Assembly (NCBI GenBank): GCA_951406725.2
Contig: OX597827.1
Span: forward strand, 28,582,001-28,646,000
Source: Octopus vulgaris
Taxonomy: Eukaryota
DNA: 64,000 nt
Direction of reading: 5' to 3'
Under the pieces are notes generated by a model. That model was not told the origin of the DNA. It searched no databases and saw nothing but the letters and a program-made list of their open reading frames with translations. How positions within the stretch are numbered: the first letter of the stretch is position 1; each line of letters starts with the position of its first letter. Positions 2,199 to 50,725 of the stretch are shown piece after piece. The position numbers were made by a program, and so were the translations under genes.

Positions 2199-4785
2199 CA
2201 CACAGTCAGCTACACGGATCACAAATTCGTGACGTGTACGCTAGACTTAGATAAGGCACATACACAGGGTCCTGGTTACTGGAAACTGAATGCATCATTC
2301 CCGTACAGACAAGTTTTCAGAGACAGAATCAACACGTTAGTAAAAAGGGCTTTAACGGGAGCCATTGTCAACAACAAATGGTGGTTCGCCCTCAAGAGAG
2401 CAGTAAAAGCGGAAGCAATAAGATATAGCAAGGCACTAGCCGTAGATAGAAATAGAGTAGAGGGTGAGTTAGTTAAGAAGTTAGAAGAGGCAATAAGAAG
2501 CGGCATCACACCCGACGTTTTTGGCAGCAAGGTTGGCCCTTGACCAACACTTCAACGCCAAACACGAAGGATGTGCTGTCAGGGCTAGGATGCGGGTTCT
2601 AAGGATGGAAGGTGTTGGAGCCGCAAGGGAGGCCCGGGTGGCGGAGGCGCAGCAGGACAACAAAGCCACCATTCGGTCTCTGGTAGATGAACAAGGGCGC
2701 GAATTGCTCGAGCCCAGCAAGATGTGCGAGACATTTCAGCGGCATTTTGCCCGACTGTACGGCGGCGGATGTGCGGGACGCGATTTGTCGAGAGACAAAT
2801 CGCCGGGTTTGGATGCTCTGCCCTACGAGTTTTACAATTGTATGCCAGACTTGTTTGGAGACGTCTTGGCAGCGATATACTGCAACTAGCAGCAAGACGG
2901 GAGCATACCCGGTTTTGTGAGTCGAGGAGCTGTAACACTGCTGAAGAAAGATCCAAACAAGGGGAACATTATAGATAACTTTAGGCCAATCACTCTGCTC
3001 AATGCAGACCTGAAAATTTTGACAAAGGTGTTAGCCAAGAGGTTGGCGCTTGTCATCGAGAAACTGGTCGACAATGCACAAACGTGCGCCGTGCCGGGCC
3101 GGAGCATCCATGACAACCTCCATCTGATGGGCTACATCATAGACAGGGTAGTTAACGAACCTGGCATGGGTGGGGCCCTGATCAACTTGGATCAATCGAA
3201 AGCCTTCGATAGGGTAGACCATCGATACTTGGAGGTAGTCCTGAGAGCGGCTGGTTTCGGTCCCGTCTTCCGCGGCTGGATAGCTGCCTTGTACAGAGGC
3301 ATCCGTTCGGTAATTCGCGTAAATGGACATCTGTCGAGACCTTTCGACATCGCACGTTCGGTCCGTCAGGGATGCCCCCTCTCGTCGCTTCTATACGTAT
3401 TGACACTTGAGCCACTACTGCGGAAGCTGGCGACTCTGAGGGGCATCCCGCGAGAATTGGGATGCGGGACGAGCGTGTCTGCATACGCGGACGACGTCAC
3501 CGTCATAGTGTCAAGCCACGAGCACATCGAGCGGGTCGGCGAGACACTGAAAGACTACGAAGCGGTGACAGGAGCAAAAATCAACCGGGAAAAGTCAGTG
3601 GGCTTGCGGCTCGGCACCTGGAGAAGAAAGCCCATGCCGTCCACCAGTACCTCCGTCGTGGGACGCTGGACAGACGACCCGGTTGAGTTGCTCGGGGTCT
3701 GGTTCGGTCCGGACCTCCAAATTGAGAAGAACTGGAACGAGATAACGAGTAGGGTGGTCACTCTCGCCCAGCAATGGGCCGAGAGGAAACTGTCCCTAAA
3801 AGGTCGGGCTGAAATGGCGAACACGTACATCGCGTCCATCATCTACTACCGCCTGACCGTCGTACCTTGTCCCGATCCATTTGCTGTCAACACCCGTTAA
3901 AAGGAGGGCTGCGCATGCCGTGGTTGATGATGCGCAGACACGCGCTGAGACTGCGACATCTCCGGCTCTATGTAGACGACGGTGAACAGGTGTGGTCGCC
4001 GTTTGTGAGGCACGCATTCCCGCAACTCGTCTCCATGACCGAACTGCAGTCGTGTCAAAAAGAGGCCGAGGAAGGGCGAATGGCACCGCGAGTGTCGCGT
4101 TGCTCTCAAACAATTCTGCCGTCCCGGGTCGACCTTGAGTGTCTTCAACACAACCAAAGCATTCTATAGGGGATTAGTGGAGGGGAGGTACGACGATGAT
4201 CTCGGGACAAACCGGGGCGTCGACGAGGAATACCTGGCCCGCCTGTTTCAAACGACTTTCGGCCCGGGACCTACGGACAACTTCCAGAGATCCCTGGCCT
4301 GGCGGTGCTACCAAGAAGCGCTACCCGTTCGGGATAAGCTCTATAGGCATGGCTCGAGAAACACGGGGCCTACCAGCCCGAGATGCGGGCAGAGCGACGA
4401 AACCGCTCTGCACGCAACCGTGCAGTGTCCAGCAATTTCCGACCTGTGGGCTTATGTCGAACGACAGCTGTCACGTGTGGGACGTGTCGGTTTATCAGCC
4501 GAGTCTATCGTCACGCCTCCTTCCTTCAAACGGGAAGGAAGAGCTATTTTTATCATACTTGTGGCTATGGCGAAAGAATTTATCTGGTGGACGCGCCTGA
4601 AAGGATTAGAGACAAGCACTTTCCTCTCTGGTCAATCTCTCATCAACTTCTTCAAGTATCACTTGAAGAGGAAAGTGAGAGTAGAGAGGCAAGTTTTGTC
4701 TAGTGAATGTTTTAAAAAAAGATGGGTGAATGTAGCAAGGATGGCACGTATGAATGACGAAGCCACCTTGACTATGATTCTATGA
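2199..4785 (+). pseudogene. Disrupted LINE ORF2 (endonuclease end, reverse transcriptase, zinc knuckle)
   Basis: Motifs KSPGLD, NFRPITLLNADLKI, LDQSKAFDRV, SVRQGCPLS, AYADD; broken by stop 2887-2889, frameshifts and apparent internal deletions near 2770 and 3875. Confidence 0.9.
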
Positions 4786-21115: not shown

Positions 21116-21389
21116 TGTGTGTGTGTTGGAAACATCATGTAACATCATGCAAAAATCGTTAGTGTTGCATTATTTGTTCCGACTCACAACCGAGGTCAAC
21201 TTTATCTTTCATCCATTCGGGATCGATTTAACAAAGTACCAGTCAAGTACTGGGGTCGATGGTATCTAGTAACCACCTCCTTCAATATTACTAACCTTGA
21301 GTCTAAATCAGAATCCACTATTTAGGGCGATTAATTAACAGAATCCTTCGAACATCGAAGACAATACTTGACATCGAATACAACTATTA

Positions 21390-21662
21390 ACATTATTTAC
21401 ATTTGACGGATATATGTTCTCATCTTGTTTGTTGTTAACACAATACTTCGACTGATATAGCCTCCAGCCTTCATCATGTGTCTTGGGGAAATTTCGAACT
21501 TGGATTCTCATTCCTAAGGTTCGAAATTTCCCCAAAGACACCTGATGAAGTCTGGAGAGTATATCACCCGAAACATTGTGTTAACAACAAACAAGATGAG
21601 GGCTAATATCCGTCATATGTAAATAATGTACATAATTCCTCATCTCTTAAATATAGAACTGT
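21390..21662. mobile_element. Head-to-head inverted pair of an HHR-bearing PLE-type terminal repeat
   Basis: Arms 21390-21499 and 21519-21629; HHR motifs at 21437-21482(-) and 21537-21582(+), both mutated; same family as 34060-34221. Confidence 0.85.
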
Positions 21663-23610: not shown

Positions 23611-24164
23611 TATTGGGTTGTCCGATTTAGAGTAGCTTACCTTTCGACTTATTTTAGAACATGGTTGAGTCTAAAAATAGGATTTGACTATGCCTTCATT
23701 AAGAGCACAGTGTAAGCTATCTTTTTGTGGAAGAAGGTTTATGTTCCTATAACCTGTGTTAATTCTGTAACCCTTTAAAATGGAAGATAAGAAAGTTCAT
23801 TTCGGCATTTGATGCTTTGGGAACCAGACAAAAATTGCTGCAGCTCGGCTGGGATGTGTTACCTCACCCTCCATATTTACTAGATATTGTTCCTTCGGAT
23901 TTCCACTTATTCGGGTCTCTGCAGAATAGTCTTAATGGTAAACATTTCAATTCCTTGGACGATGTAAAAAGATACCGTGATGAATTCTTTACCATGAAAT
24001 CACCTCAATTCTGGGAAGAGGGTGTTTTCAAGTTAAAGGAGAGATGGAGGCGCATTGTGCAACAGAATGGTTCATATTTGGTTGATTAAAAATGTAATGG
24101 CAAGTATTTATTGACCTTTTTCTTTCCTTTAAAAATCGGCACGAACTTTCCGGACAACCCAACA
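23611..24164 (+). mobile_element. Internally deleted mariner transposon
   Basis: TIRs TATTGGGTTGTCCG and CGGACAACCCAACA with TA flanks; N-terminus MEDKKVHF fused to C-terminus LPHPPYLLDIVPSDFHLF..ERWRRIVQQNGSY. Confidence 0.9.
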
Positions 24165-26574: not shown

Positions 26575-27280
26575 AGGCGGTGAGCTGGCAGAATCGTTAA
26601 CACGCCGGGCGAAATGCTTAGCGGTATTTCGTCTGCCGCTACGTTCTGAATTCAAATTCCGCCGAGGTCGACTTTGCCTTTCATCCTTTTCGGGGTCGAT
26701 TAAATAAGTACCTGTTACGAACTGGGGCCGATGTAATCGACTTAATCCCGTTGTCTGTCTTTAATGCAGTAAAAAGGATTTTTTTTTTTTTCATTTTTGT
26801 TAACCTTTATCTTAGAAAACATGTTTAACCCCCTGGGAGCAATAAAGAAATATATATATATTAGAGAGAAAGACAGCTATCTGGCAGAATCCTTAGTACA
26901 CCGGGCTTAGCGGTATTTCGTCTGCCGCTATGTTCTGAGTTCAAATTTCGCCGAGGTCGACTTTGCCTTTCATCCTTTCGGGGTCGATTAAAAAAGTACC
27001 AGTCACGCACTGGGGTCGATGTAATCGACTTAATCCGTTTGTCTGTTCTTGTTTGTCCCCTCTATGTTTAGTCCCTTGTGGGTAATAAAGAAACAGGTAT
27101 TTCATCTGCCGCTACGTACTGAGTTCAAATTCCGCCGAGGTCGACTTTGCCTTTCATCCTTTTCGGGGTCGATTAAATGAGTACCAGTTACTCACTGGGA
27201 TCGATGTATACGACTTAATCCCGTTGCCTGTCCTTGTTTATCCCCTCTCTGTTCAACCCCCTGCGGGCAATAAAGAAATA
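26575..27280 (+). mobile_element. Tandem array of three SINE family A units
   Basis: Repeated cores, each ending AATAAAGAAA. Confidence 0.88.
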
Positions 27281-33340: not shown

Positions 33341-33927
33341 AACTGAAAGATAGACAGACAGACAGAGGCACATTTGGTGCTTTGTTCGGGATTATATCCG
33401 ATTTCTGAAGTATTTTAAGACGAGCGCTACAGCGGGTGGCCATTCAACACTTTGTCTGCAACTGCTGATAAGAAAACAGCTGAAATACTTTATATTCATG
33501 TAAACTTTAATTCAAGACGATATTCACGATATTTGTTTCAAATGAACTAGATTCCAACCATATTCTGTGCCACAGCGAGTAAGTTGCTCACATGCTACAA
33601 GACTACTTTTGGACTCTACAACAGGAAAATTGAAGGTCGTTCTAAAAATTCAAATCTGATAATTCAAAGTAAGAATTATTTTTATTTTATTTCTGCTTCT
33701 TACGTCACTATATTTTGATCGTCTGCCACTTTGAACGATTTGCAGGAAATGAATGGAAAACTGTTTTGGGCCTCATTAATGGTTTCAGATTTCCAACTGT
33801 AAGTTAAAGTATCGAAGACAAGATTTGTTAAAATATGATTTAGATGTCTTGCGAAGTCGCGTGGCATTACTGGTAAAGAGATTCGGCTCAATGACGGCGC
33901 GTTGTGTCCTTAAGCCATATGCCAGTA

Positions 33928-33969
33928 GGCTACTAACCCCAAGATTCCGAGTTTGATTCCAGGTAGTGA

Positions 33970-34037
<68 letters not shown>

Positions 34038-34221
34038 GTAATAACAATATCGAAAAATACCTGAGGAATGAGGAGCCAGGTTCGAAATTTCCCCAAGACA
34101 CCTGATGAAGGCTGCAGGGTATATCAACCGAAACGTTGTATTAACAGCAAATAAGATGAGGACAAAAGTCCGTCAAATGTAAATAATGTACATACTTTCT
34201 CATCTCTTAAATATAGAACTG
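33928..34221 (+). mobile_element. tRNA-like head + (AAT)n + hammerhead-containing tail (SINE-like chimera)
   Basis: Anticodon-arm-like GGCTACTAACCC, B-box-like GAGTTTGATTCC, HHR 34097-34142 GACAC CTGATGA A GGCTG..CAACC GAAA CG TT/GTATT. Confidence 0.7.
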
Positions 34222-34436
34222 CATATCTATCTTCATCTATCTATATATATATATATATATATATATATAACGTAAAGTGTACTAGCCATCTGAATGTGCC
34301 TAGCCACTGGGGGGTGGGTGTTACTGACGCTTTTAGCCCCAGGAGATCGACGTCTCCAGCTGGCCTTAGACACAATTTCAGTGCCTTTGTGTTATTTGCA
34401 AAGGGAGATCATCCTCCCTCGAAAACCTAAGTGATA

Positions 34437-34481
34437 CATACGGACTATAGTTTCAAGGTTTTTGCCTCTCATCAACGTATG
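34437..34481 (-). ncRNA. Type I hammerhead ribozyme motif
   Basis: CATACG TTGATGA GAGG-caaaaa-CCTT GAAA CTATAG TC/CGTATG. Confidence 0.87.
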
Positions 34482-34823
34482 GTAAACACCGGTTTTCGAT
34501 GAAGGAGACCTTTGCAAATAATATTTAACGTTTTTCCCAGCAACCATAGTCACTGATTTAGAAAAACTGTCTGAAAGCATTAATAAATCTCCGAACGAGA
34601 TATAAACAGTAACCGCTCGACAACGTAAAGTGTACTAGCCATCTGAATGTGGCTAGCCACTGGGGTTGGGTGTTACTGACGCTTTTAGCCCCAGGAGATC
34701 GACGTCTCCAGCTGGCCTTAGACACAATTTCAGTGACAATTTCTAAATCAGTGACTGTGGTTACTGGGAAAAACGTTAAATATTATTTGCAAAGGTCTCC
34801 TTCATCGAAAACCGGTGTTTTTC

Positions 34824-34868
34824 CATACGTTGACGAGAGGCAAAAACCTTGAAACTATAGTCCGTATG
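34824..34868 (+). ncRNA. Type I hammerhead ribozyme motif (second copy)
   Basis: CATACG TTGACGA GAGG-caaaaa-CCTT GAAA CTATAG TC/CGTATG; extended stem I spans 34783-34913. Confidence 0.87.
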
Positions 34869-35079
34869 TATCACTTAGGTTTTCGAGGGAGGATGATCTC
34901 CCTTTGCAAATAACACAAGTGCACTGAAATTGTGTCTAAGGCCAGCTGGAGACATCGATCTCCAGGGGCTAAAAGCGTCAGTAACACCCACCCCCAGTGG
35001 CTAGCCACATTCAGATGGCTAGTACACTTTACGTTGTCGAGCGGTTACTGTTTATATCTCGTTCGGAGATTTATTAATG

Positions 35080-35117
<38 letters not shown>

Positions 35118-35627
35118 TCTATCCATCTATCTATCCATGTGTGTGCGTGCTTGTGTGTGTATGTATATGTGTATATATGCATATGTGTATATATGCATTT
35201 GTGTATATTTGCATATGTGTGTATGTATGTGCGTAGGTAGGCATATATGTATATATGCATGTTTTTATATACAAAGACGTGTAGATTTTTGCCATAGATG
35301 TGGTGAATTTTAAATTAGTTATGGAACCTTTTGAAACTTTTTCCTTTTTGTCGTTCAGTTGAGAAAGACAGAAAGATGCGGGTGGCGGGGAAGAAGAGTT
35401 TGGAAATGTCTCACATACGAACAGCAATTCACTCTCTGCCGCGCGCGCTCTCACACGTGTGTGTATGTGTGTGCGCGCGCATGTGTGTGGACATGTTAGT
35501 GCGAGCGCGGACATGTGTGTGCATGGATGTGTGCGTTTTAGAGAATCTGAGTGAGACGTCAGTGATCTGGATGTAAAGAGTTGGTAGTGTAGAAAGAGAG
35601 GGAGAAAAGGAGTAACACAGACCACAG

Positions 35628-44994: not shown

Positions 44995-45051
<57 letters not shown>

Positions 45052-45533
45052 CAATAATAAATCTCTGAACGAATATATATTCACAACCATAGATACTTAT
45101 CCAGAAATGGGCAAATGACATGAACAGGTAGGAATGCAATCCTCACCGATAAGCCGGTGAGTTTTCACATTTAACCAGCAGTGGATTTAAAAGAGCTGAA
45201 TGGAATGGAAATGCTTTCAATATTGATTTTTGTTTTTAGCTCCCCTCTTTTTTAAATGTGTATCGTCAGTTTATCTCAAGTGCTAAGTGTTCCTCTCTGC
45301 AGATATACCGAAGAGGGATTCGGTTAATATTTTTCCAACATTTACCCATAATGTTTTGCTACATCAAGTAATATAACACACACACACACACAAACAAACA
45401 AACAAACACACCACACACACAAACACACAAACAAACAAACAAACACACCACACACACAAACACACAAACATATGTGCATAGAAGTATATGTGTATGTATG
45501 TGTATATGTATGCATACATATATATAATATATG

Positions 45534-47265: not shown

Positions 47266-48420
47266 ATTGTACTTAGAGACTGCAAGAGGAGCAAAAGTAA
47301 CTTAGTCATGTCATGAATCGACTTTCGTAAGGCGTACGATATGATACCACATTCTTGGATTATGGAATGTAGGAACTTATTTGGTACTGCATCGAATGTT
47401 GAGCGATTGCTACGAAAAAGTTTGGTGAATTGGAAGACTGACCTGACAGCATACGGAAGAAGTTTAGGTTCAGTAGAAATTAGGAGGGGCATCTTTCAAG
47501 GGGACTTCCTGTCCCCACTGATCATTGTACTGTGCTTGATAAAACTAACACGGATTCTGAGGAAGGCAAAAGCTGGGTATGTATTGGAAACCGCCAACAA
47601 AAAATCAACCATTTGTTATTCGTGGATGACCTCAAACTTTATGGCAAAGTTGAAGCCCAAGTCAGTTCCCTCGTTGATACGGTGTATACCTTCAGTGCTG
47701 ATATCAGAATGGAGTTCGGACTGAAAAAGTGTGGTGTGTTAGTATTGAAGAGAGGCAAAATCAAATGTACGAACAGACTAATGATACCGTCGGGGGAGGT
47801 TATAAAGCAGATAGAAGAGACGGGCTATAAGTACTTGGGGATTTGGGAAATTGATAAAATGATGGAGAAACAAAAGACAGAAAAGTGTAAGGTGGGGCAC
47901 TTGTGCAGACTGAGACTGATACTTAAGTCGAAATTAAACGGACGGAATATGATCGAAACTATCGATACCTGGGCGGTTTCACACCTTAGATATGGAGCAG
48001 GGATAATCGCATGGACAGTAGACGAACTAAACAGCTTAGACAGAAAGACAAGGAAGTGGCTAACTAGATACGGGTCACTCCACCCAAAAGTGACACAGAC
48101 AGATTGTATGTACCAAGAAAAAGTAGGGGAAGAGGACTTATTTGATGCGAACACATCATTAGAGCAGCAGAAAACAACATATCATGGTATGTAAAAAATG
48201 CCACAGAACCGTCATTATTAGAAGTAAGAAGGTCAGGCTTGTATAGGATGAAAGATTGCAAAGATAAAGCACTATACAAGAATTTGAAAACGAATGAAAC
48301 TGAAAATAGGTGGGTAAACAAAAGATGCATGGTCAATTTCATAGGGATGTTGAAGATAAGACAGACAGAGAAAAAAGATGGCTGTGGATGACTAAAAGTG
48401 ATTTAAAACCGGAAACTGGC
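47266..48420 (+). pseudogene. R4/Dong-clade reverse transcriptase fragment
   Basis: IDFRKAYDMIPHSWI, RRGIFQGDFLSPL, INHLLFVDDLKLYG, GYKYLGI, MHGQFHR. Confidence 0.9.
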
Positions 48421-48429
48421 ACAAACTCT

Positions 48430-50725
48430 TCTCTGAATACGAATCTGGATGGTCACTTGAACAGGAACCGCTCCATCTCGAAACCTTCAAGTCCACCACC
48501 ACATCCACCACAGAACGAAAAGTGTAAGGGGATAAAATAGACCCGCGAAAAGTATACAGAAGTAATTTATGCCTATTACTATGCATTAAGCAGGCTATCT
48601 GAAGAGAAACACACCGCAAACTCTTACCAAATGTGAACTATACGAAATCAAGACAGCAGACTATATATGGACGAAAACAAGTTAGCAAATATTCGGAGGG
48701 ATATCTTCAGAAATAAAAGACCCACAGATAGTGAAACAACCGCAATCAAGCACGCAATGGAAAATGACCTAAATGTAAGACAGAAAGGAAATGAAGAACC
48801 AAAGAGAACAACTCTCCACAAATCACAATTGAAAGGCTGCCATCTAACCAGAACACTCAAACGTCTGGAGAAATAAATTTTAATGAACCTGATAAAGATA
48901 GCGAGTTAAAGTGATAAAGATATAATATTTGAAAACTACACATTTACTGAAGAACACTGAGAGTCTAAGATAGAACTGAAGCAGAAAAGCCTCACTAGGC
49001 TTGCAGTTGTAAGACACGCCAATAAGCATGGTAGAGAACTACTTCATAAACTCTTAAATACAATCCAAAATAGAAAACAAATTAAAATTGGAAACTCTGT
49101 AACAAAAGAAATCATACAAGAATTAAAACCAGATTTCACTGAATTAAATGAAATTATTTACGCAGTTGCTATGACAATTGAAACCAGTTGCAAGTCTCTG
49201 AAAAAACAAAGACATAAAAGCCTTAGAAGAATTCCAAACTGGAAAAATAAAATTAAAAAATAGATTAAAATAATGGGAAGTGAAATATAAATATTGAATA
49301 ATCTAATCTGTGGAAACGATGTAAAAACCAGAAAAGAAAGAAAGAAGATAAAATATAGATTCTCACCAAGAGAAGAACTGCTTTCAACAAAAGAAACACT
49401 GCAACAAAAAGCTCAAAGAATACAAAGATTTGAGAAGAGAAACAAATTTTATAAGCAAAATAAGCTGTTCGCAGTCAATGCGAAAACATTCTACAAAGAA
49501 ATAGGGAAGCAACCGTTAAAACCCCAGCCCCTGCCATGGAAGAAGTTGAAAATTCTGGAAAAATATCTGGAGTAATGAAAAGACTTACAATGAAAATGCA
49601 GACTGGATTAGAGACACAGAAGGATCGTACCAAAACTTACCAGACCAAACATGGGAAGACATCACAATAGCAGACCTAAGGATGACACTCACGAAGGTTC
49701 ATAATTGGAAATCTCCTTGTAATGATAAGGTGCCAAATTTCTGGCTCGCCTCGTTCCTATGTGTACACAAAAAGTTAGTCCAGCTATTCAATGAAATTAT
49801 GAGAGATCCTACGAAAACACCTGATTGGTTAGCAAGAGGTATCACTTACCTATTCCCGAAGAATAATGAAACCAAATTTCCCCAAAACGATCGGCCCATA
49901 ACATGTCTGTCTACCACGAATAAAATGTTAATATCCATCCTAGTGGAGAAAACATACAAATTTATGGAGCAGAACGATATTTTCCTCACTGAACAAAAAT
50001 GGTGCCGACGAGGCTCATATGGATGCAAAGATCAACTCTTAATCAGTCGTATGATTCTTGAGAAATGCCATTACAAACGCAGAAATCTCATTTCCGCATG
50101 GATTGATTATAAAAAGGCCTTTAACAGCACACTGCATTCATGGATTTTGGCATCACTGGATATCTTCAACATTTCTCCTGTGATTTCAAACTCCCCATCA
50201 TATATTGTTGTGAAAGACAGACCACAATATATCGGCAAAATAAATTGATCAACTCAGAAAATATAAAGATTCACTAATCAAAATCGAAAAGATGTGGCAT
50301 CTCAAGACGGTTCCAATACCAATGATTGTAGGAGCTCTTGGAATGATCAAAAAAAGAACTGAAAATTATTTAAGAATGATCCCTGGTTTACCATCCACGC
50401 AGGAAGTGCTAAAGATTCTCTTAACTGGTAACTGGTCACACGTATTGAGAAGAGCATCGGCGCTGTGAATTTTCTTTTCTTTTCCTCCTTTATTTTATTT
50501 CTATACTTTTCTATTTTTTTTTTCCTTTTTTCTCTGTCTACTTCTTTTTCTCTACCACATGACTTTGTAAATGAACATTCTGGCCTACCAATGTATACAG
50601 TACGTTTCTCTGCCCTAGGTGTCAGGAAAACACTCAACAAGAAATGGAAACAAAACTGAATGAAGATGCTAATGAAAATGATGATGATGATGATGATAAT
50701 AATAGTAATAATAATAATAATAATA
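48430..50725 (+). mobile_element. Second, internally deleted R4/Dong-clade element
   Basis: KLANIRRDIFRNK, QNKLF..KTFYK, NWKSPCNDKVPNFWL, RPITCLST, WIDYKKAF, then jumps to RLE end IPMIVGALGMI; (TGA)n(TAA)n tail. Confidence 0.85.

Follow-up and report, generated by a model that had tools for sequence, protein, structure and literature searches.

We describe a block of 814 bases (34269–35082) in a 64-kb stretch of microsatellite-rich animal DNA with repeats suggestive of an octopus genome, the whole of which is hereinafter the window. The block is likely a single insertion of a non-coding repeat with a predicted hammerhead ribozyme, made in trans by the enzyme of a Penelope-like element (PLE) that copied a template RNA probably longer than one repeat unit. 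It comprises a 353-nt ORF-less unit present in 1.32 tandem copies followed by an inverted, near-complete copy (Table 1). Read in the ribozyme sense, the two arms diverge from the centre, where they are joined 5′-to-5′, and direct their 3′ ends toward the (TA)n tracts on either side.

Organization of the block

The features of the block that had been noticed earlier, namely a period of 353, an inverted monomer reading through the unit junction, the absence of an ORF and (TA)n flanks, all hold up. The period is 353 between 34269 and 34622 and becomes 352 further on via a 1-nt indel. The inverted copy C does run through the junction, its length being 343–355 nt depending on the placement of the central join. 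No ATG-initiated ORF of the closed unit exceeds 62 aa, and both flanks are (TA)16. No target-site duplication is discernible at the block.

The left arm, formed by copies A and B (34269–34735), spans 467 nt, i.e., 1.32 units. Both arms start 0–11 nt from the tail-to-body junction. The central join is not a palindrome, as the arms meet there at different positions of the unit. Copy B is identical to copy A in 112 of 115 columns. With the central join left out, 10 substitutions and 2 single-base indels separate copy C from copy A; the arms of the insertion are about 3% apart. Over the 114–115 nt common to A, B and C the pairwise differences are 3, 4 and 3, with private changes on each copy (5 differences in all). 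An assembly artefact was considered and ruled out by the approximately 3% difference between the arms and by the same form of inversion in a contig of the public sequencing run X20 (see below).

The unit has a GC content of 43%. The three stop-to-stop frames overlapping the block that were compared with Pfam have no match there, a search of the unit for Pol III A and B boxes was negative, no tRNA was found, and the layout of the block gives no hint of an LTR. In size, GC content and coding capacity, the unit falls within the bounds used for retrozymes (150–450 bp, <50% GC and non-coding).

Table 1. Coordinates of the block, its parts and related elements in the window
Feature	Position	Strand	Remark
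Second element, two 5′-truncated copies head-to-head	21382–21661		4-nt overlap; 24–32-nt tail on right arm only; relative of 34059–34221
End of second element	34059–34221	+	Minimal PLE-type hammerhead layout at about 34098–34148; read by eye
Left (TA)n tract	34238–34268	.	Likely target remnant
Copy A, one full 353-nt unit	34269–34621	-	Outer end 34269 is the tail-less 3′ end
Type I hammerhead, copy A	34437–34481	-	Predicted cut between 34443 and 34442
Internal tail copy	34575–34621	-	Unbroken run into unit start (tail-to-body junction)
Copy B, 5′-truncated 114-nt partial tandem copy	34622–34735	-	Without hammerhead
Central 5′-to-5′ join	34723–34743	.	6-nt overlap (TTTCAG); 8-nt local direct repeat
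Copy C, inverted, roughly unit-length arm	34736–35082	+	Ends at the tailed 3′ end
Predicted long rod	34786–34912	+	Extends helix I, hammerhead at tip; arm fold z -5.8
Type I hammerhead, copy C	34824–34868	+	Predicted cut after 34862
Tail, 46–47 nt	35036–35082	+	Right outer end only; equals the internal copy
Right (TA)n tract	35083–35114	.	
Older 30-nt family fragment	45049–45077	-	90% identical; same tailed 3′ end against (TA)n

The family in public contigs

Copy C was compared with the contigs of 4 of 24 public sequencing runs: X1 and X3, which are DNA runs, and X11 and X20, which are presumed RNA runs. X3 and X11 belong to two separate studies. The ends and joints reported below come from the 24 of 248 loose ends and the 32 of 2285 pieces that were listed. 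In the DNA runs, 1069 and 1108 contigs match copy C, and 300 and 265 of these, respectively, are less than 90% alike. Genome and viral scans returned 0 matches, and a metagenome scan gave 4 matches of 18–22 letters, all attributable to chance. Summed contig depth was also considered as a signal of 5′-truncation, being 29, 23, 5 and 38 times higher at 35000–35059 than at 34736–34819 in the four runs, and was rejected since contig depth does not allow the parts of a sequence to be ranked.

The earlier note had spoken of a young family. The insertion does look recent given the small distance between its arms, but the many contigs that are less than 90% alike and the diverged fragment at 45049–45077 do not accord with youth of the family itself. 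This is likely an abundant hammerhead repeat that is not young, with the insertion under study being recent and single.

The letters of the window's tail-to-body junction recur in the loose ends before 34740, in 9 contigs of X3 (agreement 0.69, median 17 letters) and 3 contigs of X11 (agreement 0.98) among those listed. Upstream of the unit start, agreement between the X3 consensus and the tail extends over no more than about 7 letters. In one X11 contig, 35076 and 34740 are connected by a linker of 16 letters, which is the spacing seen in the window, and this linker agrees with the window junction at 10 of 16 letters (counted by hand; 80% likeness). Among those listed, a tail-to-start joint was not found in the two DNA runs. 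The head-to-tail organization is accordingly seen as 1.32 units here and as junction letters in X3 and X11, with none of the listed pieces spanning the whole unit. As a side observation, the X11 linker is closer to the start of the tail (35031–35046; 13 of 16 letters alike, counted by hand) than to the window junction, and the unit may begin with an ancient, incomplete duplicate of the first part of the tail.

The predicted hammerhead ribozyme

A hammerhead descriptor applied to both strands of the 64 kb retrieved two places only, one in each of the long copies, A and C. Under a stricter filter, which the real sites pass, 20 locally shuffled versions of the window yielded 0 matches. Rfam at gathering scores had 0 matches in the 64 kb; at up to E = 10 over 33900–35300 there were 29, none to a hammerhead family, with the best being microsatellite matches to miRNA models. 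Both predicted ribozymes display a helix I of 6 bp, a helix II of 4 bp and a helix III of 2 bp with a palindromic UAUA loop, a geometry that matches the canonical metazoan type I hammerhead (PMC4209133). They lack the minimal form of autonomous metazoan PLEs, which is distinguished by a long helix II, a bulged base after position 9 and no helix III (PMC4209133).

The cut site GUC/CGUAUG is present in both long copies just as had been claimed. One hammerhead per monomer, as the earlier reading had it, applies to copies A and C but not to the partial copy B, which stops 59 nt before a second cut site. Thus, the two ribozymes lie on opposite strands and not in tandem. Their cores deviate alike in both copies by a U3–G8 pair and a G10.1–U11.1 wobble at the base of helix II. 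A U3–G8 pair would lower the rate of cleavage; a search for literature on the activity of U3–G8 hammerheads found none. Judging from these two deviations, copies A and C may be weak cutters.

Folding predictions are in keeping with a structured RNA circle: the closed unit has a circular MFE of -107.9 as compared to -82.6 ± 5.3 for 60 shuffles (z -4.8), with the opposite strand having a z of -2.9, and forcing the ribozyme fold upon the closed unit is predicted to cost 3.8 kcal/mol. Most of the public-contig depth carries CAAAUA as loop 2, through an A>T change at 34845 (76% in X1 and 89% in X3, among the 40 of 73 variant rows listed). We take CAAAUA to be the loop of schistosome hammerheads. 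Moreover, one X11 loose end has a U3–A8 core together with a G at a helix I position, the partner of which, 34867, is often C. The U3–A8 pair is a natural covariation in hammerheads (PMC4209133). Thus, the family looks to have kept the ribozyme fold.

A rise in depth near the ribozyme was rejected as a sign of cleavage, as in the DNA runs it lies 20–35 nt upstream of the cut site. Two further contig ends are recorded here in their own right. The hammerhead in an X1 loose end behind 34855 (3 contigs) is related, but its helix III loop differs and the letters downstream show no relationship; it may belong to a second family sharing this ribozyme. An X11 contig (depth 31) has a joint from 34772 to 34887 that skips 114 nt with the ribozyme rod (shorter side 22, 80% likeness), faintly hinting at a possible ribozyme-less subfamily.

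Two recurring 3′ ends

The left arm ends at the position equal to 35035 (hereinafter the inner end) and the right arm 46–47 nt further on (the outer end). The start points had been expected to be random permutations of the unit. This expectation is not supported, as the two outer limits of the block are recurring 3′ ends separated by the 46–47-nt tail. The outer-end motif is matched 4 times where 0.24 matches would be expected; one of the 4 carries 2 mismatches, and no similarity was found beyond the motif there. Both limits of the block, as well as the fragment at 45050, adjoin (TA)n. Among the loose ends listed, the outer end is found in 9 contigs of X3, with TA-rich loose letters (agreement 0.54), and in 1 contig of X11. 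Outside the window, the inner end is found in one contig among the pieces listed (X20 record 17, depth 7.6). This 682-nt contig has a 5′-to-5′ inversion of its own, with the join at 34826/34921 and the plus arm stopping at 35037. Given that the outer end recurs at 45050 and in public contigs, and the inner end in this one independent inverted copy, we interpret them as recurring sites rather than random permutations. The sequences around the two 3′ ends in the window agree at 9 of 16 letters, a resemblance that was discarded, since it is equalled or beaten at 3 other positions of the unit.

A PLE-type insertion signature

PLE insertions show partial tandems, an inverted 5′-truncated copy at the 5′ end, a tail of 30–40 bp at one end and (TA)n targets (PMC8557442). 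The block shares this combination. Copy B is a 5′-truncated partial tandem lying upstream of the body of copy A in the sense direction; the inverted copy is head-to-head, as it is in X20 record 17; the tail is found at one end only; and the target is AT-rich, namely (TA)n. It also resembles PLE insertions in the location of the hammerhead upstream of the 3′ ends and in the overlap at its join, with head-to-head PLE joins likewise having overlapping arms, for which self-priming has been proposed (PMC3846280). In vitro, a PLE protein cuts and extends both strands, prefers AT-rich DNA, uses uncut RNA as its main substrate and starts reverse transcription at two points within the RNA, the sequence between them being the tail (PMC11167929). 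Elsewhere, PLEs have been put forward as likely mobilisers, the PLE layout has been restated, and 235 hammerheads have been reported from a squid genome (PMC7761336, PMC8969392, PMC6962438).

In contrast to PLE insertions, the block has no RT/endonuclease ORF: an ORF with RT and GIY-YIG was not found there, and a scan of 14 ORFs from the window gave no match to a GIY-YIG family. The PLE tail is followed by the start of an ORF (PMC11167929, PMC3846280), whereas no coding sequence follows the tail here. The tail is 46–47 nt long as against 30–40 bp in PLEs, and the hammerhead is not of the minimal type. An in-window control is offered by the element at 21382–21661, which combines the same inversion and one-sided tail with a minimal hammerhead recognised by eye; this second element has no sequence similarity to the 353-nt unit.

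Accordingly, the suggestion in the earlier note that the unit borrows PLE machinery is likely correct in view of the partial tandem, the inversion, the one-sided tail and the (TA)n target. The fold-back template switch that accompanied this suggestion is not needed, as head-to-head inverted copies are the usual form of PLE insertions and are also seen at 21382–21661. The formation of long dsRNA from the locus is possible on paper, and equally so for any inverted PLE insertion.

Proposed formation of the block and its template

We propose that the PLE enzyme would have nicked both strands of the (TA)n tract and primed two cDNAs within the RNA, each from its own internal site. Synthesis from the inner site would have run for 467 nt (1.32 units) and that from the outer site for about one unit (343–355 nt), and the far ends of the two cDNAs would have been joined via a short overlap. 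The ribozyme cut site is situated 173 and 219 nt from the starts of the arms and is crossed by both. If the block arose by reverse transcription, this crossing excludes a cut linear monomer as the template. With one arm also exceeding the unit in length, the circular or multimeric RNA proposed earlier is likely right insofar as the template was longer than one unit. Whether this was a religated circle or an uncut multimer, the data are accommodated equally well, and we hold the two to be evenly balanced: the right arm being one lap long favours the circle, and the weak core together with the in vitro preference for uncut RNA favours the multimer. There is precedence for a circular template in proposals made both for PLE copies exceeding one unit (PMC4209133) and for retrozymes (PMC7229834).

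The two arms have minority letters in common, namely T at 34897 (1% and 6% of the DNA-run depth) and A at 34845 (24% and 11%). Taken with the equidistance of A, B and C over their 5 differences, these letters weakly suggest one event from one template lineage.

A broader proposal is conceivable, which we advance tentatively and regard as doubtful: PLE enzymes might integrate animal retrozymes by priming at two fixed sites on the circle, such that genomic tandems would be circles rolled out in one step. If true, the locus would represent a single lap begun at one of the sites and 1.3 laps begun at the other. In that case, fixed 3′ ends and whole-lap arm lengths would constitute a direct genomic test of retrozyme movement.

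A closed unit versus other origins

The tail-to-start joins in the listed contigs of two studies favour a closed non-coding unit, rather than a coding PLE of which only the end is left. The latter is nevertheless the chief competing explanation, albeit in our estimate an unlikely one: the arms would be the 5′-truncated ends (pLTR and tail) of a coding PLE, and the 353 period would stem from a chance template jump, either here or in a deleted master copy. The hallmarks of the insertion, all of them PLE ones, suit it, as does the interpretation of paired opposite-strand hammerheads 100–700 bp apart as likely truncated PLEs (PMC4209133) and the resemblance of Xenopus retrozymes to pLTRs (Li et al. 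2026, bioRxiv 10.64898/2026.07.22.740005). Further, with the contig joints being known from the 24 of 248 loose ends listed, copies attached to an ORF may be hidden. However, what follows the tail in the block is a non-coding body that leads back to the same end after 353 nt, and both arms start within 11 nt of one point, which in a 353-nt unit has a probability of about 3% by chance. The recurrence of the junction letters in listed contigs from two studies and the canonical rather than minimal hammerhead also count against a coding-PLE stump.

The reading that came with the first observation of the block, i.e., reverse transcription of a circular RNA from random starts with a fold-back switch generating the inverted monomer, now appears quite improbable. 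It would account naturally for an inverted arm of almost exactly one unit that passes through the junction; one X20 loose end is indeed a fold-back palindrome at the hammerhead, and the self-priming proposed for head-to-head PLE joins (PMC3846280) is a comparable process. Nevertheless, both outer ends of the block recur elsewhere, with just two ends accounting for three places in the window, and its centre is no palindrome, with the arms meeting at different unit positions.

A purely DNA-level history, in which a single inserted monomer later underwent local duplication and inversion by slippage, unequal exchange or repair, is very improbable. Local amplification by unequal crossover has been proposed for retrozymes (Li et al. 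2026), and the minority letters common to the arms would fit mutual copying as well as they fit one RNA. However, A, B and C are equidistant with private changes on each (an argument that is weak with only 5 differences), and rearrangement would not set the outer ends on two recurring sites against (TA)n.

Finally, it is extremely improbable that a LINE enzyme made the block by twin priming from a multimeric transcript: although the window has RT remnants of presumed LINE type and twin priming also yields 5′-to-5′ joins, its second site is picked by chance pairing and would give no recurring second end, there is neither poly(A) nor a target duplication, and the unit is without a Pol III A or B box.

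Relationship to retrozymes

The closed unit moved by a PLE enzyme in trans, which we prefer, is likely of the animal non-LTR retrozyme or non-autonomous PLE kind, an assignment from sequence features that we make provisionally. As in metazoan non-LTR retrozymes, the unit is short, has under 50% GC and no ORF, bears a canonical type I hammerhead, forms a self-paired predicted circle, shows a head-to-tail junction and is abundant; mussel retrozyme repeats, for example, are 350–390 bp long (Cervera and de la Pena 2020, PMC7229834). It differs from them in that the block has only 1.32 tandem units with no consecutive ribozymes, a U3–G8 core, an inverted arm and a one-sided tail. Under a published rule, a retrozyme is called 'active' when two or more units follow one another and a complete hammerhead is present in every one of them (Li et al. 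2026). The block has no such pair of units, and its copies would count as monomer-type. The word 'inverted' does not occur in the main text of PMC7229834, nor the word 'tail' in that of Li et al. 2026. We found no account of the 353-nt family or of tailed inverted retrozyme insertions in the main texts of openly accessible papers.

The link between retrozymes and PLEs is drawn from their co-occurrence and the likeness to pLTRs, with the mechanism described as yet to be elucidated (Li et al. 2026). The case for a PLE link has thus been built on co-occurrence, on hammerheads common to both and on resemblance to pLTRs, and what is new here is a closed canonical-hammerhead unit with the PLE insertion signature. 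By analogy, the family might be viewed as a mini-PLE that has about 300 nt of structured RNA in place of a coding body and would work like an animal non-LTR retrozyme. Taken alone, the locus offers a single well-preserved example of an abundant repeat, the kind of which is already known. If its features are family-wide, they would furnish insertion-level evidence for a PLE partner and for a template of more than one unit, and the 353-nt RNA would make a compact substrate for in vitro assays of PLEs.

Other elements in the window

The end of the second element at 34059–34221, preceded by an (AAT)n tract, is located about 16 nt to the left of the block's (TA)n tract. Its hammerhead (about 34098–34148) has a decayed helix II and was missed by the descriptor. 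Pfam RVT_1 remnants are found on the plus strand at 2890–3900 (E 1.8e-33) and 47317–50248 (E 1.1e-07 to 0.009); by their look, we presume them to be of the LINE type and not of PLEs. A 108-aa frame at 23763–24089 (+) has no Pfam match at E 0.01, and by its motifs is presumably the end of a mariner transposase. Lastly, two copies of a 185-nt unit are present at 26912–27278, and we take this unit to resemble an octopus SINE.
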